Source: Octopus vulgaris
Lineage: Eukaryota
DNA: 64,000 nucleotides
Direction: 5' to 3'
Assembly (NCBI GenBank): GCA_951406725.2
Contig: OX597821.1
Coordinates: 71,176,001 to 71,240,000 of the forward strand
The translations under genes and the position numbers were made by a program. Numbering within the stretch: the stretch's first letter is position 1; the number at the start of each line of letters is the position of its first letter. Shown piece by piece: positions 9,143-58,790 of the stretch. The notes below the pieces were generated by a model. It saw only the letters and a list, made by a program, of their open reading frames with translations. It made no database searches and was not told the DNA's origin.

Positions 9143-10539
9143 TGTAACAAACCTGGAATCTTAACATGCAAACGCTAATATATTTCCAAGCAATAGCAGA
9201 GAACATAAAACAGGAGTGAACAAAAAAAATCTTTTAAATTCAACAAACCTGGAATAAATTTCAAGGTTCCATCCTCTAACTAATGACTAAATTAAAGGTA
9301 ACAAGATGCAGGTGAATGTCCGGTGGAGGCGGTAATGATACTGGTGGTGGTAGGAGGAGTAAGTGGTAGTAGTACTACTACTACTAATAATAATAATAAT
9401 AGTGGTAACAGCAAATGCGATTGCTTGCTTGCGCTGTTAAGCATATATATATATATATATATATAATGATTAATAATAATGATAATAATAATACTAAATA
9501 ATAATAATAATAATAATACTTTCGACTTCTCATAAAGCAAAAAGAGGATTGTGGGTGTGTATGAGTGAAGGCGGGGGAGAGGTATTAGGAAAGACAGGAG
9601 GAGAGAAGGGAATGAGGAAAACAATGGAGGGAGAGCGATGGTGAGAGAAGGAAATTCATTGTTCGTTATTACTAAATGATAAGTGAAGTCTTTTTTGCGT
9701 AATAAATGTATACAAGCATTTAGTCCGTGTTTTCAATATATATATACATATATATATATATAAGTATGTAAGTATGTACATGTCACACATATTTGCATGT
9801 TGGAGTCAATTTGAAGGAGGAAGTATTTTTGCCTGATGAAAACGTCATCATTGTGTCAAAACTAAAGTTGATAGAAATCTCTATCGTTTCAGGTTTTTTC
9901 TTTTTCAGTTTTCGTTAAAATTGTTTCCTTGTGGCATTGCAGTCTCCTTGTACTTTGTATTCATTTTTTTTTTGGTTTTTTTTTGTAATAAAGTTTTTCT
10001 TTTAAAAAAATTACTTTTATGTGTTTGGAATATTTTTTCCTTTCAGTTTTCGTTAGAAATCATTATATAATAATAATATTATGATTATATTTTGTGGGTA
10101 TTTTGTTGCTTGTCAAGCAAACCTTTGCTTATTTTGATTTTGATTCTCTGCAACAAAATAGCTTTCTCTCTCTTTGCAATATGTACGATCCAATTCTCAG
10201 AAGACAAAAAATTGAAAATTAAAAAAATTAAAAAAATGAAAACAAAAGTTTTTTTTAATGAAAAAGGTAAATTTTTGTCCGTTTTAGATGGGATATTTCT
10301 TTTAGTTGTTTTAAATTACTTCTGTCTGTGCACTCTGTGTTCTTTGAGAGCCCTCAAGTGACTCCCAAAATAAAACCACACACACTCATATATATATTAT
10401 ATACATATGCATATTATATGTTTCTATAACACATATATACACATGTGCATATATATAATTATGTGTGCTTATGTATATATTTATATACACATATATGCAT
10501 ATGTTCATGTGTAGAAAATCTAGCGCCCGAAGATAAATG

Positions 10540-10680
10540 TTACTGTTTGTTGTGGTTCGGAGCCGCCATTTCGTAATTTGCTGCATCAGTCGGTTTTCTC
10601 GTAACCGAAGCAGTTTTGGTACTTGTGCCAGAAGTCGACTTTTCTTTCACCTTTAGAAGCCGTTTGTATTCTTTCCATAC
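10540..10680 (-). CDS. aGPCR terminal coding exon: helix 8 and short C-tail (VWKEYKRLLKVKEKSTSGTSTKTASVTRKPTDAANYEMAAPNHNKQ*)
   Basis: Acceptor tattttttcag|GTA; V.KEY helix-8 motif; TAA at 10540-10542. Confidence 0.88.
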   Translation of the reverse strand, partial: VWKEYKRLLKVKEKSTSGTSTKTASVTRKPTDAANYEMAAPNHNKQ

Positions 10681-11049
10681 CTGAAAAAATATAAGGTGAT
10701 GTAAATATATAATATCATATTATATTATATATGATATAATTATATTATATAAATATATAAAAATATATATATATATATATATATATAATGATATTAATAT
10801 TAGGGAGTAAATCCAAACTTACAGGGAAAAATTAGATTTAGGATTAAATCTAATTTTATAGTATAAATAACAATGAAAATCATAAGCCAATACATAGAAA
10901 TAAAATTAATTAAAAAAATATATAAAAAATATAAAATATAAAATATAAAAATCCAATTAAAATATTTAAATTAAAGTTAAAAATTTAAAAAATTATTTAA
11001 ATGAATAATTTAAACTTATAGATTATATATATATATATATATATTATTA

Positions 11050-12200
11050 TTGTTATTTTATTTAATTATTTTTTTTTTGTTCATTACAAAACCTCGCTAA
11101 GATAAGTATATATTTATATTTAAGATCTTTAAATTTTAATATTTATAAGTCTTATGGTATAATATTATTGTTTTTTTATGTATATATCGTTGTTTATCCA
11201 ATTATCGTATTTTTCTATATAATTATTAGATATTAACTTTAAGTTTATTCGTAAGAATTTACTTAGCGATAGATATGTTGTTTGATAGCAAGTATATGAG
11301 TTTGTATAAGTTAGATTCATGTATATACGTGTATTAATAGCATTAATTGTAGTTTTACATTTCTTATAATTATTATTTTAACTTATATATTGTCTTTTTA
11401 AATTGTTATTTGCTAGTTACATTATTCCCATTGATAAATATATTTATAGTATTTATTTGTTACTATATAACTACGAATTGATTATTTCTTTAAGTACTTT
11501 AAAGATAAGATTTTTGAAAGTTATTATTTAGCCAAAGAGATAAAGATAGTTAATTTACTATAGCGTTCGTTTAAGATGGTTCGTTTGTATTTTTGAAATT
11601 AGCTATTTCATCTCTAAATATGAAAAATTAATTTATTAGGTCTTTATTATATGTGCATATATATTTATTTATAGAGATTATTTAGATTTTAATTATATAT
11701 TTATATACATTTATATATTTTCATTGATAATTTATATATTATTTATATTTTATATATTATATTTCATATATTATTTAAATTTTACTTTTTAATAATATGA
11801 ATAATCATTTTTTTTGTAAAATATTTATGTAATATATATTGACTATTACTGATATTAGATTATTGGCGGGTTTCTTACCTTAAAAATTAATACTTAATAA
11901 TTAAAATTAATATTTAACATTATAATCGTTGTTTTGACATTATCATAATCGTTAAGTTTCTAGTTTGATAATAGAGTTTTTTTATAAGAAAATTTATTAT
12001 ATTATTTATTTCTTAAAAAATGTTGTTTAAATATTTTTGATTATTTATTAAAATATTACAATTAACCTGAAGATTGACTGTAACCATAACTCGAATTATT
12101 AATTGAATTTAAATTATTGTTATTCGAATTGGTTACAGGCATGAAACGATCGTAGTGTTTTTACTCTTTATCTTATTAAACTTTTAATACTTTTTGATAG
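11050..12200 (+). mobile_element. Strongly AT-eroded Penelope-like element remnant flanked by about 170-bp inverted repeats (10868-11040 / 12300-12467)
   Basis: Traces of PLE linker motifs (WYN..., IFL.II), a terminal hammerhead motif, and flanks that are reverse complements (gaaaatcataagccaa / ttggcttatgattttc). Confidence 0.55.
12067..12160 (+). ncRNA. Hammerhead motif with long stem II at 3' end of a decayed PLE
   Basis: CTGAAGA-t-tgactgtaacca...tggttacaggca-t-GAAA-CGATC-GTA; palindrome ACGATCGT; stem I degenerate. Confidence 0.65.
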
Positions 12201-12498
12201 TTTATAAAAAAATAAAAAATAAATAAATGAATAAATATAAAAATATTAAAAAAATTTAAAAAATAAAAAATATATAAAAAAAATAATAAAATTATATATA
12301 TATATATATATATAATTTATAAGTTTAAATTATTAATTTAAATAATTTTTTAATTTTTAACTTTAATTTAAATATTTTAATTGGATTTTTATATTTTATA
12401 TTTTATATTTTTTATATATTTTTTTAATTAATTTTATTTCTATGCATTGGCTTATGATTTTCACTGTTTGATTTGCCTAGTAGTGGTTTTATCTCTAA

Positions 12499-12580
<82 letters not shown>

Positions 12581-12648
12581 TATATACATATATATATATA
12601 AATATATATATATATACATATATATATATAATATATATATATATACAT

Positions 12649-12697
<49 letters not shown>

Positions 12698-12799
12698 TAT
12701 ATATTATATTATATATATGGCTCACAACGAACACTACATTTTCTTTCTGTATTAATGTGACTTATTGTAAATAACAAGCTCTAATTAAACTATGCATAT

Positions 12800-12850
<51 letters not shown>

Positions 12851-13579
12851 CAATTCACTGGTACTTCAGTTGGATACCATATACAAATATTGATATAATT
12901 CAATACTAAAGATGAACTAAATATAGAGGTATACTATAGACATTCAATAATTTATTTATATTACAATATTACATTAAATATTACGAATATAATATAGAAC
13001 ATAACATATTATTATATAAATAATTATAAAAACCGTAGAAGGTCAACAAATTGTTTCGACTAATATATTTTTCTTATCTACATAATCACAGTTCATGTAT
13101 ATGTATATATATATGTATATACATATATATGTATGTATGTATGTATATATATATATATCCATCCTTCGTCCATTGACCTCTTTTCCCTATTATGTTAACA
13201 TCTACCCTCTCCACTGTCATACCATCTCATACACAACGACGGCCTCTCTACTCTCCACCCATTCACACAACATACCCAGCTTCATCTCTGTCTCTCTCGC
13301 CCTTCTCCTGTCTACTGTTTCATCATTACACTTCTGCTGCTTATCACTGCCAGTCATCTCCTACTCACAGCCGGTAGTTCGCTGGATCCACTCGATCAAT
13401 CCCATTCTCTCTTCTAAAATTTGAGAAGTTACGTAGTTCCTCTAAGTAAGAAATCTGTTCTGTGCTGGCCCTTTTTCTCATACTTTTGGCCCTCATCCCC
13501 TAGTATAAAGTTGCCATCCCTAACTTTGATTCTTAGTCTTGTAGACTGCATTACAGTCTCACAGTAGATATCCTTTATC

Positions 13580-13675
13580 TTTCCCTTGTTTCAGTCATCA
13601 GGCCGCGGCCATGTTGGGGCACCACCTTCAAGAATTTTAGTCGAAAGAATAGACCCTAGTACTTATTCTATCGAT

Positions 13676-13749
<74 letters not shown>

Positions 13750-13918
13750 CACACACACATGATGGGCTTCTTTTAATTTCCGCGTACAAAATCCGCTCAC
13801 AAGGCTTTGGTCCGCCCGAGGCTACAGTAGACACTTGCCTAAGGTACCATGCAGTGGGGCTGAACCGGGAACCATGCGGTTGGGAATCAGACTGCTGACC
13901 ATAGTCACTCCTGCGCCT
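13580..13918 (-). mobile_element. tRNA-derived SINE, family B
   Basis: Homologous to 7060-7451, with an internal (CA)n tract. Confidence 0.8.
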
Positions 13919-13922
13919 ATAT

Positions 13923-13998
<76 letters not shown>

Positions 13999-14069
13999 AA
14001 TTTTACATGCACAAGTTCAAACTTTATTCAAATACGAATCAGAGAAAGCATTCGTCTCGATATACCAAC

Positions 14070-14238
14070 CTGTTTATTGCCAAGACAGTGGAAACAGTAG
14101 ATGAAGAATCCTTGTAGACTGTTTAGAATGGCGAAGATATACGCGATGACGAGAGTAGCTTCGTTCATGTAGAAGAATCCAAAAACCCACGTGAGACCAA
14201 GGATAACTTCGAGGGAGAGGGCACCTTTGACCCAAGCG
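14070..14238 (-). CDS. aGPCR exon: TM6-TM7 (AWVKGALSLEVILGLTWVFGFFYMNEATLVIAYIFAILNSLQGFFIYCFHCLGNKQ)
   Basis: Acceptor ctcttcttcag|C, donor CAG|gttggt; LGLTW.FG and NSLQG.FI..FHC motifs. Confidence 0.96.
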
Positions 14239-15304: not shown

Positions 15305-15393
15305 CCGATGGTTCCTACCATGTCGTCAGGAATGACGTAGCCAGAATGTTGGTAAATAGTGATCAGTGCATAGGTCAGGATTATGGCATTCAC
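15305..15393 (-). CDS. aGPCR exon: TM5 end and ICL3 (VNAIILTYALITIYQHSGYVIPDDMVGTIG)
   Basis: Acceptor tctgcatttag|GTG. The in-frame (phase 2) donor is GG|gtgtgt at 15305; a competing out-of-frame donor lies at 15319. Confidence 0.85.
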
Positions 15394-17411: not shown

Positions 17412-17478
17412 CAGCAAGACAAAGGCCACGGGTCCGTTGAAAGCCCAAACAAAATAGTCTTCTGTGGAAAGCCAACAA
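17412..17478 (-). CDS. aGPCR exon: ECL2 and TM5 start (CWLSTEDYFVWAFNGPVAFVLL)
   Basis: Acceptor ttctttcgcag|T, donor CTG|gtgagt; CWL and W.F.GP motifs. Confidence 0.95.
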
Positions 17479-18875: not shown

Positions 18876-18942
18876 TGTCGGTCTGTTCCGTAGCCGTCCA
18901 AGTTGACGATGGCTGAAATACTGACAACCAGAGTGGGGAATC
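18876..18942 (-). CDS. aGPCR exon: TM4 end and ECL2 (FPTLVVSISAIVNLDGYGTDR)
   Basis: Acceptor tctattttag|GA, donor CA|gtaagt; 67 nt. Confidence 0.94.
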
Positions 18943-19231: not shown

Positions 19232-19317
19232 GTAGGTCCCGGGTTGATTCGGGGTTAACCACAGTAAGTAAGGTACTCAATACATAGCAGAGTAAAATTA
19301 ATTTATTATATAGAAGG

Positions 19318-19368
19318 AGCTTCTACAGGACTAGTACTGTTTCATTCAAGAGAAATCTTCAGGAAGCT
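19318..19368 (-). ncRNA. Type I hammerhead ribozyme motif (PLE-type), sense to the aGPCR pre-mRNA
   Basis: Minus strand reads AGCUUC-CUGAAGA-UUUC UCUU GAAU-GAAA-CAGUACUAGUCCU-GUA^GAAGCU: 6-bp stem I, intact CUGANGA/GAAA core, short stem II, near-palindromic stem III, GUA cleavage triplet. Confidence 0.82.
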
Positions 19369-19751
19369 ATTTAACAAGAATTGTATTAGCATTTATACAT
19401 TTAGGCAGGTTTAAAGGAGTGGTGGTGGGGGACTTTTTGGGGGTAGGCATAGCGCAAAATATCATACTTGGGGGAGTGGTCAAGGAGTCAGTGGTAAGTT
19501 AGATGAAAGAATAGATAAATAAAAAATAAAAAAATAAAAAATAAAAAAATAAAATAAAAAAATAAAAAAATAAAAAATATAAAAAATATATATAAAAAAA
19601 TATATATATAAAATATATATATAAAAAAATATATATATAAAAAAAGGGGGGATAGAGTTATAGGTAAATAAGGAGATTCTCACTTATACCTATACACACA
19701 TGTATACGTATCTACACACACATACATGCATACACATATATATACACACAC

Positions 19752-19782
<31 letters not shown>

Positions 19783-20670
19783 CATATATACATATACATA
19801 TGTACACACATACATACATATCTACATACACACATACATACACCCACCCACATATACAAATTTATACACATGCACATGCCTATACCTGTCTACACATACA
19901 CACACGTATATATGCATACACTCACTCCCATGCATGCACGCATACACACATGTATATATATATATATATACCCACGACCACACATACATATATACACATA
20001 AAAATATATATTCATACGCACATACACTCATGCACACACAACACACCTAGTTCCCTATATACACATATTTACACCTATATATACATACACCCACATACAC
20101 CTATGTACACATATATATATATAAACATATACACGCATACATATATATACATGTGTGCACATACATACATACACACATATATACATACACATACACATAC
20201 ACATGTGTACCTATACATACCTACACATACACACATACATACATACAAATATACATATACATATATATATATACAATCCAATACAGGCCCATTCCCTAAT
20301 TTTAATTTTATTATCTTCATTTATTACTTTTGTTATCTTTGATCGCTAGGGCTAAGAATCCTGGCAATGGCTGCATGTCCATTTGTCTGTCTACTAGAAG
20401 GCAAGTACTCATTCTCGCACGCACACTCATTAGCACGTACATTCACCCATTCGTACACTCATACACATACACGTACGCACGCGTTATATTCATACATACA
20501 AACATCTACATACGTTCACGTATATACACATACGTACTCGTACCTACAGATTCGTGTCTACACTTTAGGAGGCTAGTCTATACATATACACCAATAAATA
20601 TACATATATATATATATACCCGCATATACATACACACACACACATATATACTCCTACATACAGATACATA

Positions 20671-20718
<48 letters not shown>

Positions 20719-20906
20719 CACACACATACATACACATACACACATACATATACACACACATACATACACATATATATACATACACAAACATATATACACA
20801 CATATATATATACATACACACATACATACGTATACATACATACATACATCCATACATCCATACTTACATGCATTTATACGCATACACACACCCATCTATA
20901 TATATG

Positions 20907-20937
<31 letters not shown>

Positions 20938-21456
20938 TCACACATACATATACAAATCTACGCACACACATACATACATACACGTATACGCATACACGCA
21001 CATACACATATACATGCGTACCCATACACGTGCACACACGCACGCGCATCCATATATATACACACACACACATATATATATACACGTATGCTTGCACACG
21101 TGTATATATATGTGTGTGTGTGTATATATATGGATGCGCGTGCGTGTGTGCACGTGTATGGGTACGCATGTATATGTGTATGTGCGTGTATGCGTATACG
21201 TGTATGTATGTATGTGTGTGCGTAGATTTGTATATGTATGTGTGAGTGTGTATATATATATATATATATACATATATATAGATGGGTGTGTGTATGCGTA
21301 TAAATGCATGTAAGTATGGATGTATGGATGTATGTATGTATGTATACGTATGTATGTGTGTATGTGTGTATGTATATATATATGTGTGTATATATGTTTG
21401 TGTATGTATATATATGTGTATGTATGTGTGTGTATATGTATGTGTGTATGTGTATG

Positions 21457-21502
<46 letters not shown>

Positions 21503-22390
21503 TATGTATCTGTATGTAGGAGTATATATGTGTGTGTGTGTATGTATATGCGGGTATATATATATATATGTATATTTATTGGTGTATATGTATAGACTAG
21601 CCTCCTAAAGTGTAGACACGAATCTGTAGGTACGAGTACGTATGTGTATATACGTGAACGTATGTAGATGTTTGTATGTATGAATATAACGCGTGCGTAC
21701 GTGTATGTGTATGAGTGTACGAATGGGTGAATGTACGTGCTAATGAGTGTGCGTGCGAGAATGAGTACTTGCCTTCTAGTAGACAGACAAATGGACATGC
21801 AGCCATTGCCAGGATTCTTAGCCCTAGCGATCAAAGATAACAAAAGTAATAAATGAAGATAATAAAATTAAAATTAGGGAATGGGCCTGTATTGGATTGT
21901 ATATATATATATGTATATGTATATTTGTATGTATGTATGTGTGTATGTGTAGGTATGTATAGGTACACATGTGTATGTGTATGTGTATGTATATATGTGT
22001 GTATGTATGTATGTGCACACATGTATATATATGTATGCGTGTATATGTTTATATATATATATGTGTACATAGGTGTATGTGGGTGTATGTATATATAGGT
22101 GTAAATATGTGTATATAGGGAACTAGGTGTGTTGTGTGTGCATGAGTGTATGTGCGTATGAATATATATTTTTATGTGTATATATGTATGTGTGGTCGTG
22201 GGTATATATATATATATATACATGTGTGTATGCGTGCATGCATGGGAGTGAGTGTATGCATATATACGTGTGTGTATGTGTAGACAGGTATAGGCATGTG
22301 CATGTGTATAAATTTGTATATGTGGGCGGGTGTATGTATGTGTGTATGTAGATATGTATGTATGTGTGTACATATGTATATGTATATATG

Positions 22391-22421
<31 letters not shown>

Positions 22422-22805
22422 GTGTGTGTATATATATGTGTATGCATGTATGTGTGTGTAGATACGTATACATGTGTGTATAGGTATAAGTGAGAATCTC
22501 CTTATTTACCTATAACTCTATCCCCCCTTTTTTTTATATATATATTTTTTTATATATATATTTTATATATATATTTTTTTATATATATTTTTTATATTTT
22601 TTATTTTTTTATTTTTTATTTTATTTTTTTATTTTTTTATTTTTTTATTTTTTATTTATCTATTCTTTCATCTAACTTACCACTGACTCCTTGACCACTC
22701 CCCCAAGTATGATATTTTGCGCTATGCCTACCCCCAAAAAGTCCCCCACCACCACTCCTTTAAACCTGCCTAAATGTATAAATGCTAATACAATTCTTGT
22801 TAAAT

Positions 22806-22856
22806 AGCTTCCTGAAGATTTCTCTTGAATGAAACAGTACTAGTCCTGTAGAAGCT
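22806..22856 (+). ncRNA. Type I hammerhead ribozyme motif, mirror copy of 19318-19368
   Basis: agcttc ctgaaga tttc tctt gaat gaaa cagtactagtcct gta gaagct; predicted cleavage after 22850. Confidence 0.82.
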
Positions 22857-22867
22857 CCTTCTATATA

Positions 22868-22958
<91 letters not shown>

Positions 22959-23173: not shown

Positions 23174-23327
23174 CATATCCAAATATATAGTAATAAATCA
23201 TCTTCGATTTAGCGGTTTTGAACACCTGGACAATCATGATGAGGATTTTGGCAGCTTCCATCAGCATCCAAGAGAATGCAGCCAAGAAGAAGTAATGCAT
23301 CAGCCCAGCGAACACTGAACATACCAT
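23174..23327 (-). CDS. aGPCR exon: TM3, ICL2 and start of TM4 (MVCSVFAGLMHYFFLAAFSWMLMEAAKILIMIVQVFKTAKSKMIYYYIFGYG)
   Basis: Acceptor gtacacag|ATG, donor G|gtgagt (phase 1). Confidence 0.95.
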
Positions 23328-24230: not shown

Positions 24231-24333
24231 CTTATTCGTGGTTCTGTCAACACCAATCATGAAAAGAAGTTGAGCAACAAAGAGACAAAAGACAAGATTT
24301 TTGTGTATGGAATTCCGTTCCCCACGTATAGCA
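24231..24333 (-). CDS. aGPCR exon: TM2 (AIRGERNSIHKNLVFCLFVAQLLFMIGVDRTTNK)
   Basis: Acceptor ttttttccag|T, donor AAG|gtaggc; RN.IHKNL motif. Confidence 0.95.
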
Positions 24334-25578: not shown

Positions 25579-25682
25579 GTGACTACGTTGAACGTGATCC
25601 AGCTGAGGAAGAGACCAATCATCGATATTGAACAACCAACGTAAGTAATAATACGGAGAGCGTTCTGATGGGTGTAAGAGAT
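25579..25682 (-). CDS. aGPCR exon: TM1 (ISYTHQNALRIITYVGCSISMIGLFLSWITFNVVT)
   Basis: Acceptor ctccaatcag|ATC, donor AC|gtgagt (phase 2). Confidence 0.95.
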
Positions 25683-26431: not shown

Positions 26432-26552
26432 CTCGATTCCTTCGACGTCCATGAGAATGGCAAAATTTGTCAAATGGTTGCAGCGACATTTTGTTTGGTA
26501 AATATCTGAGTTTATCATTCTGCATCCCTTTTGAGACCAATATGGTCGTGTG
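26432..26552 (-). CDS. aGPCR exon: GPS motif with autoproteolysis site and tethered agonist (WSQKGC...TKCRCNHL|TNFAILMDVEGIE)
   Basis: Acceptor ttttgtag|C, donor GAG|gtaatg; canonical W...GC, C.C.HL|T consensus and Stachel TNFAILM. Confidence 0.96.
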
Positions 26553-27207: not shown

Positions 27208-27260
27208 TTGGCTGTCATGTTCCAGAAGGAGCAGCGCGGTTTCACATGGATTGGTAAAGG
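27208..27260 (-). CDS. aGPCR exon: GPS start (PLPIHVKPRCSFWNMTA)
   Basis: Acceptor ttctcctcag|CCT, donor AA|gtaagt (phase 2); CSFW motif. Confidence 0.92.
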
Positions 27261-28079: not shown

Positions 28080-28267
28080 CTTAGTGTGTTCCATAGAAAA
28101 CACCACGGGTTCTCGGAGCACCTCCCCATGGTAATTAGCAACAGACGCGCTAATGATCTTGCTGTAGATTTTAACTTCCTTTTGACCTTCCGCAGTATCA
28201 GTCTCTATCGTTGGCATAAGATCCGGCAAACTGTTGTAAGTCACAAACACAACTTTAGCCAAGCCAC
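28080..28267 (-). CDS. aGPCR exon: GAIN subdomain B (GLAKVVFVTYNSL...SKIISAS...EPVVFSMEHTK)
   Basis: Acceptor tttctgtcacag|GT, donor AAG|gtacgc; VVF..Y..L, S.IISAS, PV.F...H motifs. Confidence 0.94.
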
Positions 28268-29079: not shown

Positions 29080-29193
29080 CTTTGCTAATGGATCGCAGAT
29101 TTTCAGAAGGAAGAGCGAAAGAATCTCCTTCAGAATGAAACGTTATTTCCGGTTCTTCTAATTTGTCGACATCTAATACTTGCAGCTGAGCCT
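29080..29193 (-). CDS. aGPCR exon: GAIN domain (EAQLQVLDVDKLEEPEITFHSEGDSFALPSENLRSISK)
   Basis: Acceptor ttttttcag|AG, donor G|gtagga; phase 1/1. Confidence 0.9.
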
Positions 29194-30948: not shown

Positions 30949-31132
30949 CGATGTTCTCTGTCTTTTTCACTATTAGTTGCGGTTCGTCGATGGCATTCAC
31001 TAGTTTCATAGTCGCAGAATCCACAGAACTCATCAGCTCTGAGGCCGATTCCACCACTTCGTGTTTGGTCATGTTGTTAAATGCTTTCGTCTGATCTTTG
31101 GACATTAAGTTATTGCCGATTTTTACAACATC
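30949..31132 (-). CDS. aGPCR exon: GAIN domain (DVVKIGNNLMSKDQTKAF...IVKKTENI)
   Basis: Acceptor ttcttcccag|GAT, donor G|gtaatg (phase 1); NNL...A..LM..V...T.NI GAIN pattern. Confidence 0.92.
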
Positions 31133-32249: not shown

Positions 32250-32441
32250 CGTAACTATGGATTCGACAGTTTCTTTCTTAGGTTTGGAAGAGAAATCTAA
32301 GGAGTTACTGAAGCTTTTAAAGAATTCTGATGCAACGACATAATCTTCAACTGACATTTTCGGTTGAGATGTAACATCCGCCAACTTTTGAGAAACCACA
32401 ACTTTGGCTTTATTTGTTCCTTTAGACAACTCTGAGGTGGC
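32250..32441 (-). CDS. aGPCR exon: GAIN subdomain A (ATSELSKG...KETVESIVT)
   Basis: Acceptor ttttttccag|GCC, donor ACG|gtgagt; 192 nt, phase 0/0. Confidence 0.9.
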
Positions 32442-33391: not shown

Positions 33392-33492
33392 CTTGCTCAA
33401 GAAATCCCTTATTTGTCGAGAAGTACAATTTTGAATATTGTGATTTTCTTCCCAGCAGACGGGATAATTGTTGCACTTCCTGAAGGCCATGT
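33392..33492 (-). CDS. aGPCR exon: HormR second half (MAFRKCNNYPVCWEENHNIQNCTSRQIRDFLSK)
   Basis: Acceptor atcttag|AC, donor AAG|gtaagt; A.R.C....W......NCTS motif. Confidence 0.92.
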
Positions 33493-33788: not shown

Positions 33789-34085
33789 TGCTTCCTGATG
33801 GACAAGGCATCATGGCATGTTGACCAGCAGCTGTACGTGGCCATTTTACATTTAAGAGAGTTTGTTCAGGGCAGAATCCGTCTTCACTAACCTCCACAAC
33901 TTTACCACTTGCGTAAGAGCAAACTTGTCCGCCCATCGAGTCAATGGTTGTTTCAAATGTAGAATAATCGCCATTAATAAACGGGGTTTTACGAGAGGTT
34001 GGGAAACTGAAGTCTTGGTGGTGGTGTGTCGAGGATTTTGATGTGTGGCTATGGGTCGTACGGTTGTCGGATGACTGGGGGACAA
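33789..34085 (-). CDS. aGPCR exon: Ser/Thr/His-rich linker plus first half of hormone-receptor (HormR) domain (FCPEQTLLNVKWPRTAAGQHAMMPCPSGS)
   Basis: Acceptor ttttttgtcccccag|TT (phase 1), donor A|gtaagt; C......WP.T..G..A..PCP HormR motif. Confidence 0.92.
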
Positions 34086-35179
34086 CTGGGGGACAAAAAA
34101 AAGAAATAACAAACAAAAAAATAAATAACTAAAATAAGAAGGTTTCTAACATAGACACAGGGCTAGAAAATATAAGGATTGGTCGGTGAAATCGATTAAA
34201 TCAAACATAATCTTCAGCGGGTATTTTATGTCAGACATGACCGCTTTTACATTCATCATTAACAGGAAATATTACTTATTTATTTAGACATGAAGAATGG
34301 TGCTATACGTACAATTATACATACATACATACATACATACATACATACATACATACATACAAACACATATACAAACATACATGCATATATACATACATAC
34401 ATACATACATACATACAGACATGAAGAATGGTGCTATACGTACAATTATACATACATACATACATACATACATACATACATACATACATACATTATACAT
34501 ACATAATACATACATACATACATTATACATACATAATACATACATAATACATATATACATAATACATATATACATACATAATACATAGATACATACATGA
34601 TACATGCATACATACATACATACATATATACACATACATACATACGTATGTATGTATGTATGTATGTATGTATGTATGTATGTATGTATGTATGACAAAG
34701 ATGCAGGTAGAGCCTGTAAAGTGTGGCAACCGATGCAGACTCTGTGGAGTCCACACTGCAGATATCACCCATATCATAAGCATTTAAGTATACACGAGCA
34801 TGCCTAGATATGTGACTATATGCATGAGAATACACACACAAAACAAAACATACAAATCTGCACATCTACACGGATACAAGCAAAACTATCCTGTTTTTGA
34901 TGTTGAAATTGCAATGAAGGAGCCTTGGATCCAGGTTAGAAACCAGCTCTTTCTCTATTGGCAAGAAATATTGAAATAAAACTGAACAATGACATACATA
35001 CACAAATACACACATACGAGCCTGTGTGTCTGTCCGACAAAGGCCGAGTGAGCCGAAACTTCGAAGTCCCTATCAATACTATTCTGGTTAAAGAAGGATA
35101 AATTTGTACTCAAGCAAAAGTATGGGGTAATCCTTCAGCTAAATGTGAAATTGTTTCTATTACAATAAGACTTAAAACG

Positions 35180-35282: not shown

Positions 35283-35410
35283 TCTTCATTTTTTCACAGA
35301 TGAATGGTTTCGCGCTCAGACAACTCTCGTCGTTAAGTTTTCCTTCAAAGTTAAGCTCGGCACAGTCTTCTTCGGCTAGTCCATTGTTAGGTTCGCCCGG
35401 AGCCCAAAGT
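35283..35410 (-). CDS. aGPCR exon: C-type lectin domain part 3 (LWAPGEPNNGLAEEDCAELNFEGKLNDESCLSAKPFICEKMK)
   Basis: Acceptor ctacag|A, donor A|gtaagt (phase 1); W..GEPNN, E.C, LND..C, FICE motifs. Confidence 0.95.
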
Positions 35411-35699
35411 CTGTAGTAAGAAACAACACAAAGAATACAAAATAAGAATTACAAGGAAAGAAGGAAAAAAATTAACAAAGAATATAACAAAACAATGTGA
35501 TACGGTGAAGAGAGGCAATTTTCTTGAAGGATTCCAAAGTACATCTGTCGATGTCCAAGAATGGTCTGTTCTTGGATGCAGGGGCAGTGTTGTATCGTGT
35601 GGGTCATTAGATATTTAGGATCTTACAATATACAGCCTTATCCAAACAATCCGATTTAGTTCGGTAAAATCAAGCTCTTGTCCAACTGACGAAATTCTA

Positions 35700-36240
35700 T
35701 TAACCCGACTGGTCACCTTTTGTTCCGGCTAGGGCCATCTTGGTAGTTTCTATGCAGCCTCTGGGTAGCTTTTGATGGATATTGTTATGTTTATTCCTGC
35801 TCGGGTTTCCATAGTTTACAAACTGCGAACCCCACTTGCCAAACTCTAATTCCAAACACCTCAGTTCCCCCCTCACATTCTTGCGGAATTCCCCCACCAC
35901 CACCAACTCCTGATATTTAGGACTCTTTTTATACTTCTAACCGACATGTTATTCGTATAAAATCATCCATGAGTTGCTTGTAATACCGAGCTGTATTATA
36001 AATATTCTTATGGAAACTGACGCCTCTTCTTGGAAATCCTGTCTTCACCAAGAAGAACAATAATTCCATTAACGGGCATTTAGCTACAGAAAGAAAGAGA
36101 GCTGGCCATATGTCATGCCTGCGTCGAGTGCTCTCTACCAAAATGCTCTCTACCAAAAGTGCTCTCCTTTTACAAGATTTCTCTACCAAAATGTGGAAGT
36201 CTGGGAATGTTGCGTATTCCTCATGTTTCGTGTATTTTAA
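35700..36240 (-). mobile_element. Probable decayed Penelope-like element 3' fragment
   Basis: SFHKNIYNTARYYKQLMDDFIRITCRLE resembles the GIY-YIG C-terminal segment of PLEs; weak match. Confidence 0.35.
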
Positions 36241-37377
36241 GATGGCAATTCTAGTTGTCGTTTCGTTCCAGATCAAACTTGATCGGATAGATCTTTGATA
36301 CAAGGCATTCCAGCCGTAACAGCTAAGTCACTTTTGCAGACATAGTATATCCAGATCTGCGCCATTCAACGCTCCCTTTCTCCTTTCCGAGATAGTAGGA
36401 TTTGATCTGAAGGACACTTAGTTACTCTTTCCAGCAGATCAAGTAATTGCATAGCGTTTCCCTTTGTTGACGGAGAACAGCAGAGACAGGGAAGATGTGT
36501 TAGATCACAGGACGCCAGCTATCTCAACTTGACAGTCAGCTGTTTTACTCGGCTGGCACTGCCTTACAGCAATGAACTGGTTTTATCTATTTAGAGCTGT
36601 ATGAATTCAGCCGCTGAGAGATAAATGCCTTGGTTACAGATAAAACCTAACAGCAGTAATAATAATAGTAGTATTAATAGGATCCAAAGTTTGATATCTC
36701 AGTAGCTTGTCTGCCCGAATAATAATTTCGCAATTTGCCCATCAACGCCCTTTATTTAATCGGAAGTAACTGACGAAATCGTTTTCTTACTGATTCTAAT
36801 AACAATGTTTTCTTCACAGCATTAAAGACTAGTCCTCATAACACAATTACTGATGTAGTAACCAAAAGGTAACATTGTTGTATATAGTGCTGACTTCTAG
36901 CTTGCGTAGGCTTTGCAACCAAATGGATTAGCGTTCAATTCCTACACAGAACAACAGGTATATTCTCCTATTTCAATTTCGACATTATCATCCGAAAATG
37001 AGAACGGTACATATCAATAAGATGATAACATAGAGGAAGGTAATAAAAGAATAAGAAGATGAAATGAGAGAAGAAACCAAAGCATCAGTCCTTAGGGGCA
37101 ATCCTGCGTAGATCCATGAGTGTAAGTCATTAGGTGCAATCCTGCGTTCCTAGCGCACCCAATCGTTTAGATCACCTGTGAACTAAATCCCCATATTTTT
37201 TGTGTGTGTATATATATATAAATACATACATACACCTATATATATATATGTATATATACCTATATATATATATATATATATAAGCATACTATACTTAGGA
37301 AAAAGCAACATCACAGAATAAGTTATTTTGTAAAAAAGAAAGAAAGAAAAAAAGCGGAAACGATCAGCTCTACTTAC

Positions 37378-37514
37378 GACATTGTTGAATCGTCATAGGA
37401 TGTTCTGTCAGTCCAGATCCAAGTTTCTTTATCAATATCAAAACTGAGACCAACCCACCAAGTACCTTGTTCGATGCTGGTGATGATTTCCATCAATTTC
37501 TTTATCAGAACCTC
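37378..37514 (-). CDS. aGPCR exon: C-type lectin domain part 2 (EVLIKKLMEIITSIEQGTWWVGLSFDIDKETWIWTDRTSYDDSTMS)
   Basis: Acceptor cttttctag|GAG, donor TC|gtaagt (phase 2); WVGL and W.W.D CTLD motifs. Not in the ORF track. Confidence 0.93.
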
Positions 37515-37854
37515 CTAGAAAAGGTGAAAGGTGGAAACTAGTATAACAAAACAATAAATTTATTATGAAAAAAGAAAATTAGGCTGTGCTGGGGGACCTT
37601 TGGCTTTCACAAAGTCTGCAGTGTAAAATGTAGAAGCAAATAATTAGTTATATCGAAATATTTAATTTCATAGCGTTCTCAATACAGAGATGAAGCAGAA
37701 CAAATGTGGTGGGTGTTAAAATCGAATTCTCTTATAGACAGAACTTTCAAATCCGGAGTCTCAGAGAAGTTTCTTCTCCATAAAAAAATTTCTTGTTAAT
37801 GGGGGTTTTTAATTCAAGTTAAACGAGTTAAAAACCGTTAAACCCAACACATTT

Positions 37855-38025
37855 TCTCTCTCCCCTTTTTTCTCTTTCTCTCTATTTTTTCCTCTCATCT
37901 CTTTCTGATGAAGAGCGTAGACTGGAAACATCAAAGACTTTTCTATTCTTCTCGAGCGTCAAATTAATACACCTGCTTGTTGTTCCCGCGCCTGTCTTTG
38001 ACCTTTGTTTTCTCTACATTTGAAC
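37855..38025 (+). mobile_element. Short repeat family with hammerhead-like motif (37900-37937)
   Basis: TCTTT-CTGATGA-A-GAGC GTAG ACTG-GAAAC-ATC-AAAGA; canonical core and 5-bp stem I, stem II decayed. Confidence 0.65.
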
Positions 38026-38062
<37 letters not shown>

Positions 38063-38801
38063 GATTTTTAATCCTTTTAATGGTTTCAGTCGTAGGAATA
38101 CGGCCATAATATTGGAGCACCACTTTAATATATTTTCTTCCAATTTTGTTGTCGCGGCTGGCTCGGTACCATCGTTAGGAGTTTATCCAATGTTTTCTTT
38201 ATTTTTTTTTAAATGTTTCAATAGAGGTTCTGTTTATATTTCTGATTTCTTTGGGTTGGCAGTTGAACAATTGGAAACCTCTAAATATCAGACGGATGCA
38301 ATAAGGCTTTTGTTCGTAATTTCGAATGTGGTGTGTTTGGAAGCTGATGAGTTAAAGAACTAAATTTCCCACATATTCTATAAAGTACTCTGAAAGCTTC
38401 GATTGACATTAAGATGGCTGAAACGTTACAATAAAATACAAAACGTTTAATGCACCAAATCAACAAATAACGAAGGCAGCTTCTCTTCGGGGTGGTCGCG
38501 GGAGGCTGAACGGCTTTTACCTTTCCTTCATGAGTGCTATTTTAAATCCTACATCGGTCATCGAAAATAATTAATTAGATAATTTTTAGGTAATTAAAAA
38601 CGGAATGGAGCGCATGATTATTATTCAAAGACGTTTTGTATTTGGTACAATTGATATGTGCAAATAAAAACTTATCCTTTTCAAAAACAATCCCAAGAAT
38701 ATGAAAGAATGCTAGAATTAAAATGATTTGGCTGATGCTGGGTTAAATTGATAATTTAGAGAAATGGTTTTACTGAAATGTCTGTAGAAAGAAACGTTAT
38801 G

Positions 38802-38862
<61 letters not shown>

Positions 38863-39685
38863 AGAGAGAGAGAGAGAGCGAGAAAGAGAAAGAGAGAGGA
38901 ATAGGAGAGACAAAAGACAAAGAGGAAACGCTATCTCACAGTATTAAAAAAAAACGCAGGGAATTAAAAATACTCTCCTGTAGTTGAAATCTATAAAATA
39001 AAAAAAAACTTTAAAACAACGCCTTGATAAAAAAATATACTAAAATTAGAAATTTCTTGGGCGTGTAAACTTAAATAATTGTTTTCTTTTATCGACTAAT
39101 CAATAAGCATCTTTCCTTATTATAGTACAGCTTGCCTGTACAAAAGTGATAAAAGCCATCGCTTACGGAGTTAACATCTATAATAACAAAAAAACAAAAA
39201 AACCGAAATTTTATATCTTAAACTCCTCAACCAATTCCGAAAATGCAGAAACAGCGCACAAATGTAAGCACAAGGATCCCATTATGGTTAATATAGATAG
39301 GCATCAAACTCAGAAAATGTGGGTTCAAATACTGATAGTTGTTAATCAATTGCTTAACTATTTAGCCAATTAACTAATCTTTTTTTAAAATTAATTATTC
39401 GGTTAATAAATCAGTAAGTTATGTTTTTTAAAATCCTTTCGTTGCTACTGGCAACCTCTTCAACGACACGCCTTCTCTATTCCAGGTCATGTTCAAATCC
39501 GAAGTGAAATAGAACCAGTACACGTGTTTATTATTGGTGTGATGATCGTCCCGAAATATAACAAAATATTCATATATATTTCCCTTTGTATTTGCATACA
39601 AATTATAGTGTAGACATCCAATAACTTTAAATCATAATTACACCCATTCTGGGAAAAGAAGCAAGAGAAAAGAACTCAGTGACGA

Positions 39686-39726
39686 CTTCAGACACATTTT
39701 GGCCTTATTAGGCTTCGTCAGTGGAA
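39686..39726 (-). ncRNA. Degenerate hammerhead motif
   Basis: Minus strand ttcca-CTGACGA-aGCCT aata AGGCc-AAAA-tgt-GTC-tgaag; G12 mutated, so probably inactive. Confidence 0.55.
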
Positions 39727-39819
39727 CATCATCTAAGAATAACTAACTTGAAGAACTGATGTGCAATTCTGGATAAGCCTTCGAAAAGAAGTTGAAATAT
39801 GAAAGCAAATTATACTTAC

Positions 39820-39965
39820 TGCTTCCTTTAAATTGTTGATGGATACCAAGGAGCCTCCGTTTTCATTGCATATGGCGAGGGCATCACTATAAACTTCCTT
39901 TTCACATACAAACATATAATGGCCGCTTCTAAGCTGCACCCATCCATCAACGCAATCCGCGTTTA
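39820..39965 (-). CDS. aGPCR exon: C-type lectin domain part 1 (NADCVDGWVQLRSGHYMFVCEKEVYSDALAICNENGGSLVSINNLKEA)
   Basis: Acceptor ttattatattacag|TA (phase 1), donor GCA|gtaagt (phase 0); typical CTLD N-terminal C..GW / A..C...GG.L.SI pattern. Confidence 0.92.
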
Positions 39966-40284
39966 CTGTAATATAATAAAGAAGACATACAATATTAAGT
40001 TTTAGAAAAGAATACAATTAGAAATGAAACATAAAAAAAGGACATAATAAATGCCTTTGAAAAAAGGATCATTATAGAAAACCGCGCTCCTATGGTCATG
40101 CACCCATACATACTTAACAAGAAACGCTCGTAGCATCTGATGTAGCACCGGATATGTCGTCTGCGCTCCCGGAAATTTAAGTGATGTGGAACTGAGAAAC
40201 TGTTATTAAAAATATAGCTCCAACCAAACGAATTGAGTGCTAGTGCTACTCTTTTCGTTTCTTCACTCACTCACACATATATGA

Positions 40285-43149: not shown

Positions 43150-43990
43150 TTCTAAGTAGAGTCTCATAGGGAACTGTACTGGGATCACTACTATTTGTGG
43201 TGGCCCTCTCAGACAAGCTCTCCTCGGTACCGTCAGCCAGTCTGACTGTTGAGACACAAAAGATAAGAACCCAGAAGACATAAAACTGCAGAAAGACCTG
43301 AACGAAATCTACAAATGGGCCAACAAAAATAACATGCAGTTCAATGCTATGAAATTTCAGGCATTCTACTATCGGCCCAATACCAGGCTAAAAATCAGAA
43401 TACACTGGTCCAATAGGCAATACTATCCCAGAGTCAGAGTCGATGCGTGAACTGGAGGTTCACATGAGCAATGAAGCAACATTCCCTGTGTATATAATCA
43501 AAATGGCAACACTATGTAAGCGAGTGGTTGAATGGATTCTGAGGACATTCAGTACCAGGAAAAGGGAGACCCTGCTATTCTTATGGAGGACTTTCGTTCT
43601 CAGCCGCTTGTACTACTGGTCCCAGCTATGGTCCCCAGTGAGTGTGGAACAAACTGTGGAACTCGAAGTAATCCAGTGCCAATACACAAAGAAGATTGAC
43701 TCGATGCAAAAGATGGGCGCTACTGTGAGAGGCTAAAGGAGCTGAGTTTCTGTTCCCTGGAAAGAAGACGAGAGAGATGTGCGGTGATATATATTTAGAA
43801 GATCTTGGAGGGTTTAGCTCCAATCCTCCAATCCAGACCAATCCTCGAACTGGACGACGCTGCATCATAGCAAAAATCCCGTCTCATCCATCTAAAATAA
43901 TGACTCAGTACTGCAAAAGCCTGGATTTCAAGAACCCGCAATTGTTCAACATCTTGCCAGGCAACCTTAGATTGAAAGATAGACAAATAA
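43150..43990 (+). mobile_element. Decayed CR1/L2-group LINE RT fragment
   Basis: GTVLGSLLF, LQKDLNEIYKWANKNNMQFN..KF, WILRTF..R, LWSP, LE.IQ motifs with frameshifts. Confidence 0.85.
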
Positions 43991-46502: not shown

Positions 46503-46784
46503 TATGAATACCAATCTGTCCATGACCGCCAGTTTGTCTTTCAAACTTTCTCATCACGGCAAATATATTCGTCCATTTCTAGATAATACCGCAAGTCTCC
46601 AGCAATCTCTTCAAATATCCATCATTCTCCGTGTAATTTCGTCAGTGTCTGAAATCTAATTATTTTCCTCCATCTGATTCCTATTATTTATTTCATGAAT
46701 TACAAAAAGGCTAAAATTTACCTTTCCCACAATTCTGGCATATGGTTTACATTATTGAAAGTTAGACTAAACCTATTGCTTGTG

Positions 46785-46820
<36 letters not shown>

Positions 46821-46822
<2 letters not shown>

Positions 46823-47590
46823 CGTACTCATCTCTGAAAACATGGATCAGCTTCAGACCATGCTGACGGAGCTCGACATCAAAAGTTCTGCAGTAGGTCT
46901 CGAGATGAACCGCATGAAAACAAAGTTCATGCGGTCAGACAACGTACCAACAGGTCGAATGGTGATCGGCAGTGATGAAATAGAAGAGGTGAGAGAATAT
47001 GTCTACCTGGAACAGGAAGTAAATATGTGCCGGAATATCAAAAAGGAGATCTCACGGAGAGTAAGGGCCAGATGGAAGGCGTTCAGTGGCATAAGGGATG
47101 TGCTCAAGGGAAGGTTGGACAGGACCACCCGTGCTAACCTCATTAACAGTGCAGTTCTGCCTGCAATGTTATATGGTAGTGAAACATGGGCTACCACAAA
47201 GAGAGAAGAGCAAAGACTGATAACGGCTCAAAGAGCCATGGAAAGGTCAATGCTTGGTATCTCGTTGAGAGAGCACATAAATAACAACATCATCAGAAAG
47301 AAGTCAGGCGTGAGAGATGTCATCGCAGAGTATACTCGCAGCAAGTATAGATGGGCTGGACACGTCGCCCGGCTCACCGATAATCGGTGGACGCACGCAG
47401 TTGTCGAGTGGTACCCGCGTGAGCGGAAAAGACCACCCGGAAGACCTCCATGACGGTGGAGTGACGATTTCAAGAGGACATTTGGGATCACGTGGATGAG
47501 AAAGGCGCGATCCAGAGAGGAGTGGACAGCGTGCTGTGACCAGCGGTGTCAAATGGACGCCTGACGGACTGGTCGGTCAAAGTGACAAGA
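46821..47590 (+). mobile_element. 5'-truncated RTE-clade LINE (RT C-terminal half) inserted in a (TA)n tract
   Basis: IVLISEN..QLQTML.EL...GL.MN..KTK, YVYL.Q, LPAMLYGSETW, K.RWAGHVAR, KRP.GRP; one internal TGA (47451-47453), natural stop at about 47562-47564. Confidence 0.92.
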
Positions 47591-47618: not shown

Positions 47619-47935
47619 CGAGGGTAATCCCAAGAGTAAGGTCTCCAAAAATATTTAAAAATCACAGAAACGTTTATTTTCAATGATGTTTTCATCATTT
47701 TAAAGTTTGAACATTTATTTATTTTTCTACATAATCGCCATTTCGGTCGATGCACTTTTGTAAGTGCTGAGGCAGTTTTTGTACGCCCATATCATACCAG
47801 CTCACCGCCATGTTGAACTTCATCTTTCACCTTGTCGTCGTTGCTGAAGCGCGTTCCGACCAAATGTTCTTTCAATTTAGTGAACAGGTGGTTATCACTT
47901 GGTGCCAAGTCCGGACTATAAGGTGAGTTGCCATT
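47619..47935 (-). mobile_element. Mariner transposon 3' fragment
   Basis: TIR ta-cgagggtaatcccaagagtaaggtctcc; minus-strand translation PYSPDLAPSDNHLFTKLKEHLVGTRFSNDDKVK. Confidence 0.88.
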
Positions 47936-47949
47936 TATGGTCTTCTGTA

Positions 47950-48031
<82 letters not shown>

Positions 48032-48099
48032 ACTATATATATATTATTGTTAGATTAGACCTATTGTTTGTGGTACATATATATATATATATATATATA

Positions 48100-57938: not shown

Positions 57939-58790
57939 CAGGGTGCGATGGGCAAACTGTCGACATTTTATATTTCTAACTTCATGCATGCACATTGTTG
58001 TTTTTGATTTTGTCGACTAAACAGTATAGTAGGGTCAGTTGGGTGCCGTCAGTAAAAAAAACAGCACAATGATGCAATTCATTCTGCCACAAATTTGGAA
58101 ACGACATGCTGTACTGCTTGGCATTTGCACCGGAAGTTCCAATAACAACATTCCAGAGTATTTGGGTGGCAATCCAAGGACAGCGCAATCTCAGGCCAGG
58201 TACCGAGAGTGATAAAAATTAAACATCCAATCAACATCATGGTGTTTGGAGTGATTACTAGTGATGGTACGTTATGCCTCCATTCATCTTCCCACACGAC
58301 CTCAGACTCAACACGGAGGCCTACATCAAGTGCCTGGAGGAATTAGTGCTGCCCTGGGTCAAGAGGATGGCTGCTGGAAGATCCTATGCCTGGCAACAGG
58401 GCTTTGCACCATGCCACAGAAGCAAGAGAACACAGTCATGGCTGTCAGACAATTTCTGTGATCACATCATCCCTAACATCTGTCCACCAAACCCCACCAC
58501 ACTGCAACCCCCTTGATTATTATATGTGGGGGGGCAGGTGAGCGAGAGACCAACAAAAATTCCTTGTAACACCAAAGATGAACCAAAGGCAAGGATTATG
58601 GCAGCATTCACCAACTTAAAACAAAGAGACTGCCCAGAAGAGTTGCAGGAAATTCCGAAGTTGTCTGGAGCCCGTGTTTGAAGCCAATGGCGATTTTATT
58701 GAATAAATTTAATCTTTAGTATTTCAAGATATTTTAATGTAATTTTAGTAAATATATTTGTTAAAATGAGATGTCAGTGTCATTTCATTT
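57939..58790 (+). mobile_element. Tc1/mariner superfamily (maT-like) transposase remnant
   Basis: KHPINIMVFGVITSDG.VMPPFIF...WQQGFAPCH...PPNP...LDYYMWG; catalytic D degenerate and frameshifts present. Confidence 0.8.

Follow-up and report, generated by a model that had tools for sequence, protein, structure and literature searches.

The window, a 64,000-nucleotide stretch of Octopus vulgaris DNA, contains on its minus strand a 19-exon gene (39965-10540) that forms a single 851-aa frame in our window exon model (Table 1). All 18 introns are GT-AG, and the lone stop codon lies at the end of the model. The encoded chain runs from a C-type lectin domain (CTLD) through a Ser/Thr stalk, HormR, GAIN with an HL|T site, and a 7TM to a short tail.

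Table 1. Exons of the CTLD receptor gene in the window
Feature	Position	Strand	Basis
CTLD exon 1: beta0/beta1, helix 1; starts phase 1	39820..39965	-	gene model, Pfam, P0001 alignment
CTLD exon 2: helix 2, WVGL strand	37378..37514	-	gene model, P0001 alignment
CTLD exon 3 with Ca2+ site 2 (EPN 35394-35386, downstream Glu 35370-35368, LND 35337-35329); ends phase 1	35283..35410	-	gene model, Pfam Lectin_C 1.6e-6, SP-D alignment
Ser/Thr-rich stalk and HormR first half	33789..34085	-	gene model, Pfam, clade comparison; stalk disordered in predicted structure
HormR second half	33392..33492	-	gene model, Pfam on P0001
GAIN subdomain A	32250..32441	-	gene model, Pfam on P0001
GAIN exon	30949..31132	-	gene model, Pfam per exon
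GAIN exon	29080..29193	-	gene model, P0001 alignment
GAIN exon	28080..28267	-	gene model, Pfam per exon
GPS motif start	27208..27260	-	gene model, Pfam on P0001
GPS: HL|T 26476-26468, Stachel TNFAILM 26470-26450	26432..26552	-	gene model, Pfam GPS 8.2e-13, clade comparison
TM1	25579..25682	-	gene model, Pfam per exon
TM2	24231..24333	-	gene model, Pfam per exon
TM3 to TM4 start	23174..23327	-	gene model, Pfam per exon
TM4 and ECL2	18876..18942	-	gene model, P0001 alignment
ECL2 and TM5 start	17412..17478	-	gene model, P0001 alignment
TM5 and ICL3	15305..15393	-	gene model, P0001 alignment
TM6 and TM7	14070..14238	-	gene model, Pfam per exon
Helix 8, short cytoplasmic tail, stop codon	10540..10680	-	gene model, P0001 alignment, clade comparison

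Splicing of the CTLD exons to the receptor

The three CTLD exons have AG acceptors and GTAAGT donors, their joins follow phases 1-0-2-1, and the frame runs on into exon 34085-33789. Because the exon junctions were picked by visual inspection, an open frame is not by itself a test against chance; the independent test is the Octopus sinensis RefSeq protein P0001. We found that P0001 is co-linear with the window gene and identical to it at 840 of 850 residues, with one gap. In addition, 18 ortholog records carry the CTLD through the 7TM on single contigs of 2.8-4.2 kb, which are too short for introns and thus support the splice from CTLD to receptor, and 26 named mollusc proteins have the identical order. 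These three observations make it extremely improbable that the CTLD exons are a separate gene and the fusion a modeling artifact, as could be argued from the first exon lying outside the window and from a model built on genomic DNA alone. A sequence-only reading had proposed that three exons encode a complete CTLD spliced in frame to HormR-GAIN-7TM, and the gene model and the identity to P0001 bear this out. Its exon limits needed small corrections: the CTLD exons are real, but exon 3 starts at 35410, and one more 5' exon lies beyond the window.

That further exon would encode the putative 21-aa signal peptide with which P0001 starts; the N terminus is hydrophobic in orthologs P0001-P0003. No signal-peptide exon turned up in the window by an ATG-plus-donor scan, tblastn, or an ungapped scan, the last with a best score of 33 versus a self score of 101. 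An alternative acceptor 11 nt inside exon 34085 broke the frame, and a second paralog within the window was ruled out, as tblastn gave one copy. Eight suspected transposon ORFs had no match in Pfam.

Receptor core and phylogeny

Pfam on P0001 matched Lectin_C (1.6e-17), HRM (3.4e-6), GAIN (1.4e-18), GPS (3.7e-15), and 7tm_2 (2.9e-61); HormR (PF02793) passes at 27.8 bits with a cutoff of 26.2. When 14 window exons were searched singly, 9 gave the expected family, and the others gave nothing (4 expected cases) or an unrelated weak match. GAIN with GPS thus lies ahead of a class-B-type 7TM in both Pfam and the structure comparison, the arrangement of an adhesion GPCR. Pfam found no SUEL/rhamnose-binding lectin (RBL) domain in P0001, and none of the 44 CTLD-clade rows has one; an olfactomedin domain (Pfam on P0001) and a long cytoplasmic tail (tail comparison) are likewise absent.

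The predicted structure (44-sequence input) has a mean pLDDT of 76, with the CTLD mostly at 74-92 and the stalk below 50. Its HormR-GAIN part best matches latrophilin-1 (4dlq; E 1.2e-22), its 7TM reaches a TM-score of about 0.85 against ADGRL1-3, and the best PDB sequence match of the receptor is ADGRL3 (E 5e-114). The stretch HL|TNFAILM fits the H-x|T/S cleavage consensus and runs on into a Stachel-type sequence, and H[LM]|[TS] occurs in 44 of 44 CTLD-clade members, as expected if the site is cleavable, as had been proposed. By family analogy, the octopus receptor would undergo autoproteolysis and be activated by its tethered agonist. The stalk, 51-295 aa long across the clade with Ser plus Thr mostly at 24-49%, is probably O-glycosylated, judging from related proteins. 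Cytoplasmic tails are 37-124 aa in the clade (one is truncated at 3); by contrast, all 8 latrophilins compared have tails of 320-412 aa.

We found that the CTLD-bearing receptors form one clade (100/100 under LG+G4 and LG+C20) covering chiton, gastropods, bivalves, and cephalopods, and that this clade nests inside lophotrochozoan latrophilins (92/92 and 90/91). Its support was lower (93/77) with long-branch outgroups; the non-latrophilin outgroups were two, both long branches (Meriones ADGRE1 and Amphiura), and as these joined each other, the tree was rebuilt without both. The GAIN-7TM grouping with latrophilins across molluscs, the ADGRL3 match, and the 4dlq match agree with the earlier assignment as a latrophilin-like adhesion GPCR. 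Argonauta, Liolophura, and Dreissena keep a rhamnose-lectin latrophilin as a separate gene. P0016 was considered as a fused RBL-CTLD tandem and rejected, since both halves group together outside the CTLD clade.

The suggestion of an octopus or cephalopod lineage-specific expansion is not supported: we saw one CTLD-receptor cluster in each cephalopod species, the clade is mollusc-wide, and the AU test rejects a duplication confined to cephalopods (p-AU 4e-12). Expansion is seen in Imparidentia clams, in whose duplicated copies the sugar site has decayed. Judged from sequence, the gene is a member of an old mollusc-wide latrophilin branch, not a one-to-one ADGRL3 ortholog. The RefSeq name "L3" is a best-hit label only, and ADGRL1-4 database names are misleading for this branch.

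The predicted Ca2+ sugar site of the CTLD

The CTLD fold, core disulfides, and a WIGL-type motif are present (Pfam, alignments, and predicted structure). At site 2, the five Ca2+ ligand residues (E-x-N, E, N, D) all align gap-free to the EPN/E/WND of SP-D. We therefore judge site 2, previously described as largely intact, to be fully intact in these five residues, and the predicted mannose-type site stands. The change from WND to LND affects only Trp, a nonligand; this Trp is absent and is Leu in 15 of 19 genera in the clade alignment. Excerpts of PMC5877582 and PMC12842671 describe LND in mollusc lectins. The Trp-to-Leu change may make the site looser. In the alignment with Endo180, what we take to be the accessory site-1 Asp position is Phe, and no site-1 column is conserved in the clade alignment.

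By family knowledge, the sugar class is predicted to be mannose/fucose/GlcNAc, and single-site affinity would be low, so that clustering would be needed. A mannose-type CTLD site needs free 3- and 4-OH groups, and within the chitin chain the 4-OH is already occupied; the chitin contact put forward earlier is thus unlikely.

Counted by protein, the full EPN/E/xND set is present in 20 of 42 members of the clade; counted by named genus, in 10 of 19. It occurs in chiton, cephalopods, oysters, unionids, and patello-, veti-, and neomphaline gastropods. Such a scattered distribution suggests that the full site is ancestral. Within the clade alone, each of the five ligands is kept in 10-15 of 19 genera, whereas the 61 polar CTLD columns have a median of 4; every ligand is among the ten highest-ranking columns. 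In many CTLDs, however, conservation is greatest in the long-loop region. The canonical site is missing in the other 22 proteins (mytilids [EPD], Imparidentia, Batillaria, and heterobranchs), which suggests that such sugar binding is dispensable in several lineages.

Alternatively, the CTLD could recognize a protein, by analogy to the latrophilin lectin-teneurin pair and perhaps through Ca2+ at site 2, and the receptor could serve cell-cell wiring rather than glycan sensing; we regard this as unlikely. CTLDs of lecticans and CD23 bind proteins Ca2+-dependently, and the receptor persists without the site in those 22 proteins with the core Cys and Trp of the CTLD retained, both of which count for a protein partner. 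So does the "lectin" of the parent latrophilin, which binds a protein, teneurin (PMC6422961, in part). In contrast, ten genera retain all five ligands as a set, the usual sugar-binding signature, and CTLD identity to members outside cephalopods is only 22-44% overall. The same selective retention argues against a CTLD that is a Ca2+-stabilized spacer or cap without a ligand, on a receptor answering shear or HormR ligands. Members from Bradybaena and Lymnaea, in which the CTLD is unrecognizable or partial, would fit a spacer, but both models may be 5'-incomplete, and we consider it very unlikely.

Low copy number and a site unchanged from chiton to octopus, unlike fast-turning immune lectin families, speak against a pattern-recognition GPCR, as does the fact that the site-losing copies are the duplicated ones. 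On hemocytes or epithelia, such a receptor would bind mannans, LPS cores, or peptidoglycan of microbes and signal directly, a role we think improbable. It would be consistent with exon 3 matching EPN lectins best in the PDB (SP-D, DC-SIGN, and collectin-11, for instance), with the clam copies duplicated and diversified at the site, and with mollusc CTLs being widely immune receptors (sections of PMC5877582 and PMC12842671). However, in one mussel lectin a domain with EPN/LND motifs did not bind LPS or peptidoglycan, and mollusc CTLs with the same motif have different ligands, according to the same portion of PMC5877582. Microbial recognition may occur, but a self ligand better suits a pattern of low copy number and conservation.

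Proposed function and comparison with known systems

We see roughly balanced chances that the gene is a mollusc-wide latrophilin paralog in which a CTLD replaced the rhamnose-lectin head and grips self glycans via Ca2+ to trigger Stachel signaling. The CTLD, on its Ser/Thr stalk, would hold glycans that end in mannose, fucose, or GlcNAc and belong to the animal itself (its cells, matrix, or mucus); tension on the cleaved GAIN would then release the Stachel and start G-protein signaling. We read the ligand as self rather than microbial only from copy number and conservation. A latrophilin may have duplicated no later than the mollusc stem; a three-exon CTLD module with phase 1-1 ends would then have been inserted, and the rhamnose-lectin domain and most of the tail would have been lost. 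More tentatively, and at a little under an even chance, this is a dedicated mollusc receptor derived from a duplicated latrophilin, so far unnamed and kept for >500 million years, whose Ca2+-lectin reads surface glycans, self or microbial, and converts a tug into a G-protein signal; a defined sugar would then be the natural trigger of this adhesion GPCR.

Most adhesion GPCRs are orphans. The canonical latrophilin lectin head binds protein, and the mollusc head has what appears to be a textbook sugar site, so its ligand should be findable by glycan array and switchable by one motif change. The receptor is a simple test case for whether the Stachel can be activated by a ligand bound at the far end of a flexible stalk, and the clam and snail site-loss variants are a natural comparison set. 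It is a probable mollusc innovation hidden under ADGRL1-4 names and explains nothing specific to octopus. We found no description of this branch in the literature searched. The available parts of an octopus brain atlas (PMC9712504; text and 3 supplementary files) held nothing on this gene, and term searches of portions of PMC10140915, PMC12716839, and PMC7308585 gave no CTLD-GPCR mention.

Invertebrate latrophilins (Cirl/LAT-type) share the HormR-GAIN-GPS-7TM core and a near-identical Stachel with the octopus gene. In contrast, they have an RBL head where the octopus gene has a CTLD and mucin-like stalk, and tails of 320-412 aa versus about 48 aa. Vertebrate ADGRL1-3 resemble it in sequence and 7TM fold but have RBL, olfactomedin, and a long tail, all three of which it lacks. 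C. elegans LAT-2 is a CTLD-bearing adhesion GPCR. CTLD-bearing adhesion GPCRs are already in print for amphioxus (a lectin C-type domain on GPS-7TM receptors; PMC2246102, in part) and a nematode (a Bursaphelenchus protein that combines two CTLDs with GPS and a latrophilin-like 7TM; PMC9085898, in part), and the mollusc branch appears undescribed. We likened the amphioxus and nematode receptors to the octopus gene by described domain content, outside the tree. Mannose-type lectins (SP-D, DC-SIGN, Endo180 CTLD2, and codakine) have the EPN, Glu, and Asn-Asp set and long-form disulfides in common with the octopus CTLD, which differs in having LND rather than WND and in being a single domain without an oligomerizing neck, tethered to a GPCR.

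Gene model and splicing of the lectin exons

Exons were read from the sequence and joined by script, giving a 19-exon gene on the minus strand (39965 to 10540) with GT-AG boundaries at 18 of 18 introns and a single open frame of 851 residues. Its three CTLD exons, a block with phase 1 at entry and exit, encode residues 1 to 137, a complete long-form CTLD. With the stalk exon at 34085 as the query, we found one protein among 25 candidates, the Octopus sinensis RefSeq "adhesion GPCR L3," which is identical to the window model at 840 of 850 residues. By this match, the window comes from an Octopus that is O. sinensis or a close relative. The gene is already annotated in O. sinensis, under a misleading name. 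The 19-exon frame and this match bear out the sequence-only reading that three exons supply a complete CTLD in frame with HormR-GAIN-7TM. The 21-residue signal peptide of the ortholog had no match anywhere in the window, and no such exon was found at 39966 to 64000; therefore, the first intron exceeds 24 kb.

CTLD-through-7TM proteins (867 to 1,235 aa) are encoded whole in 18 further records on contigs of only 2.8 to 4.2 kb, whereas the octopus exons of the same gene spread over 29.4 kb. The contigs are therefore most plausibly assembled transcripts. Together with the RefSeq protein, these records support the predicted joining of the CTLD exons to the exon at 34085.

The window is animal DNA rich in microsatellites. 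The arms of its inverted duplication are 98.3% identical (1 mismatch, 6 gaps), and the structure is either a palindrome of recent origin or an artefact of fold-back reads. Pfam gave no match for 8 of 8 suspected transposon ORFs in the window.

Features of the window
Position	Strand	Observation
10001-14000		Very AT-rich (GC 0.20-0.28); lies in last intron and 3' region
10540-10680	-	Short tail with Tyr-Glu-hydrophobic motif, common to cephalopods, chiton, oysters and mussels
19301-22873		Near-perfect inverted duplication in intron 14; arms ~1.78 kb, almost no spacer
33789-34085	-	Stalk exon; single Cys ahead of HormR in most clade members, within small predicted two-strand element
34075-34096	-	11-nt tandem duplication at stalk-exon acceptor, giving two AGs; frame kept by upstream AG only; lone gap versus O. 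sinensis falls here
43392-43733	+	Resembles a LINE or mariner fragment
46653-47450	+	As above
47795-48043	-	As above
58265-58513	+	As above

Domains and family history

In the O. sinensis ortholog, Lectin_C, HRM, GAIN, GPS, and 7tm_2 all exceeded Pfam cut-offs, and Pfam detected no SUEL (rhamnose-binding lectin, RBL) or olfactomedin domain. A structure model built on 44 sequences (mean pLDDT, 76) was confident for the CTLD and HormR-GAIN-7TM and disordered for the stalk (residues 158 to 208). Its Foldseek matches were CD97, latrophilin-1 HormR-GAIN (E, 1.2e-22), and ADGRL2/3 7TM. The cleavage motif H[LM]|[TS] occurs in 44 of 44 clade members, and clade comparison showed the Ser/Thr stalk and short tail. 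The tail motif is a possible sorting or phosphorylation signal.

We searched proteins by word index with the 7TM region and examined the best 120 of 2,194 matches. Among these, 44 carried a CTLD, none of the 44 combined CTLD and SUEL in one protein, and all 26 named carriers were molluscs (chiton, gastropods, bivalves, and cephalopods). Because this rests on a word-index search, confinement of the clade to molluscs is provisional. In the main tree (46 selected proteins, 400 GAIN-7TM columns), rooted on deuterostome latrophilins with other adhesion GPCR families sampled sparsely, 21 CTLD proteins, together with two heterobranch proteins in which no CTLD was recognised, formed one clade (100/100) within lophotrochozoan latrophilins (92/92). 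A mixture model on 25 rows gave the same result (100/100 and 90/91), and clade support was 93/77 with two long-branch outgroups added. By sequence, the octopus gene is a member of a mollusc-wide CTLD latrophilin branch.

A topology joining the CTLD receptors of cephalopods to the RBL latrophilin of Argonauta was rejected (p-AU, 4e-12). Database names within the one clade (ADGRL1, L2, L3, L4, and E4P) do not reflect orthology.

The RBL latrophilin is kept as a separate gene in Argonauta, Liolophura, and Dreissena. RBL and CTLD paralogs lie on equal-sized contigs in two of the five species pairs for which contigs were given, Liolophura and Potamilus (locus tags eight apart in the latter), which hints at a tandem origin; those of Argonauta, Dreissena, and Lymnaea lie on contigs of differing size. 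P0016, a gene model in which two genes are fused, contains SUEL, several CTLDs that are degenerate, and two GAIN-7TM units; it is sister to the mollusc CTLD clade (92/95). Given that position, a both-lectins stage, of which P0016 is a possible intermediate, or a pre-mollusc origin is conceivable. Another protein, P0094 (VWA-PKD-CTLD-HormR-GAIN-7TM), pairs a CTLD nearly the same as that of Dreissena P0176 with a highly divergent 7TM and represents either a chimeric model or further shuffling.

The predicted sugar site and its proposed ligand

Exon 3 aligned gap-free with surfactant protein D, with EPN, the Glu ahead of Cys, and Asn-Asp all there. This match agrees with the earlier assignment of predicted Ca2+ site-2 ligands, LND included. 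The available text on codakine names that Asn and Asp, not Trp, as Ca2+ ligands (PMC12842671). We surveyed 42 proteins (44 CTLD rows minus six near-identical copies, P0169 to P0174, plus four added representatives) and found the full set in 20 of them and, among the 19 named genera, in 10 (Octopus, Argonauta, Liolophura, Haliotis, Patella, Gigantopelta, Potamilus, Sinanodonta, Ostrea, and Saccostrea). The site is altered in Mytilus (EPD, FD), Batillaria, Plakobranchus, Biomphalaria, and every Imparidentia copy; Dreissena retains EPN (by eye) and has lost the Asn of xND. With one protein per genus, each of the five ligands was retained in 10 to 15 of 19 genera, against a median of 4 for the background of 61 polar columns of the clade's own CTLDs. 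An intact predicted sugar site is likely ancestral in mollusc CTLD latrophilins. The motif does not determine the ligand, since a mussel EPN/LND domain is described, in the text available, as without binding to LPS or peptidoglycan (PMC5877582).

Among the best 120 of 2,194 matches, cephalopods had one cluster per species, as against three apiece for Mercenaria, Mya, and Ruditapes; at the 90% clustering used, duplicates of very recent origin may be masked. A lineage-specific expansion in octopus, as suggested, is unsupported.

From CTLD knowledge, the domain would grip sugars at chain ends whose 3- and 4-OH groups are equatorial; internal residues of chitin lack a free 4-OH. By analogy with other adhesion GPCRs, a stiff O-glycosylated stalk may hold one low-affinity lectin above the membrane, GAIN would be cleaved at HL|T, and a pull would expose the Stachel, the tethered agonist, and activate the receptor. 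The gene is low in copy number and its site has stayed the same, which is unlike immune lectins that turn over fast; on this weak and indirect ground we favor, with about even confidence, a self glycan over microbes, which we consider an improbable ligand, or a protein, which seems just as doubtful.

Comparison with known receptors

Nematode LAT-2 bears a CTLD. In the portions of the literature available, CTLD-bearing adhesion GPCRs are on record in amphioxus (PMC2246102) and a nematode (PMC9085898). Mollusc latrophilins are there described as mostly RBL, HRM, and GAIN, with CTLD not among the further domains listed (PMC6422961), and a study including O. bimaculoides receptors calls for new invertebrate subfamilies (PMC6900090). 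Our literature search, with subscription papers mostly outside it, found no description of this mollusc CTLD-latrophilin clade. The pairing of a CTLD with an adhesion GPCR has precedent, and nothing about the gene is peculiar to octopus.
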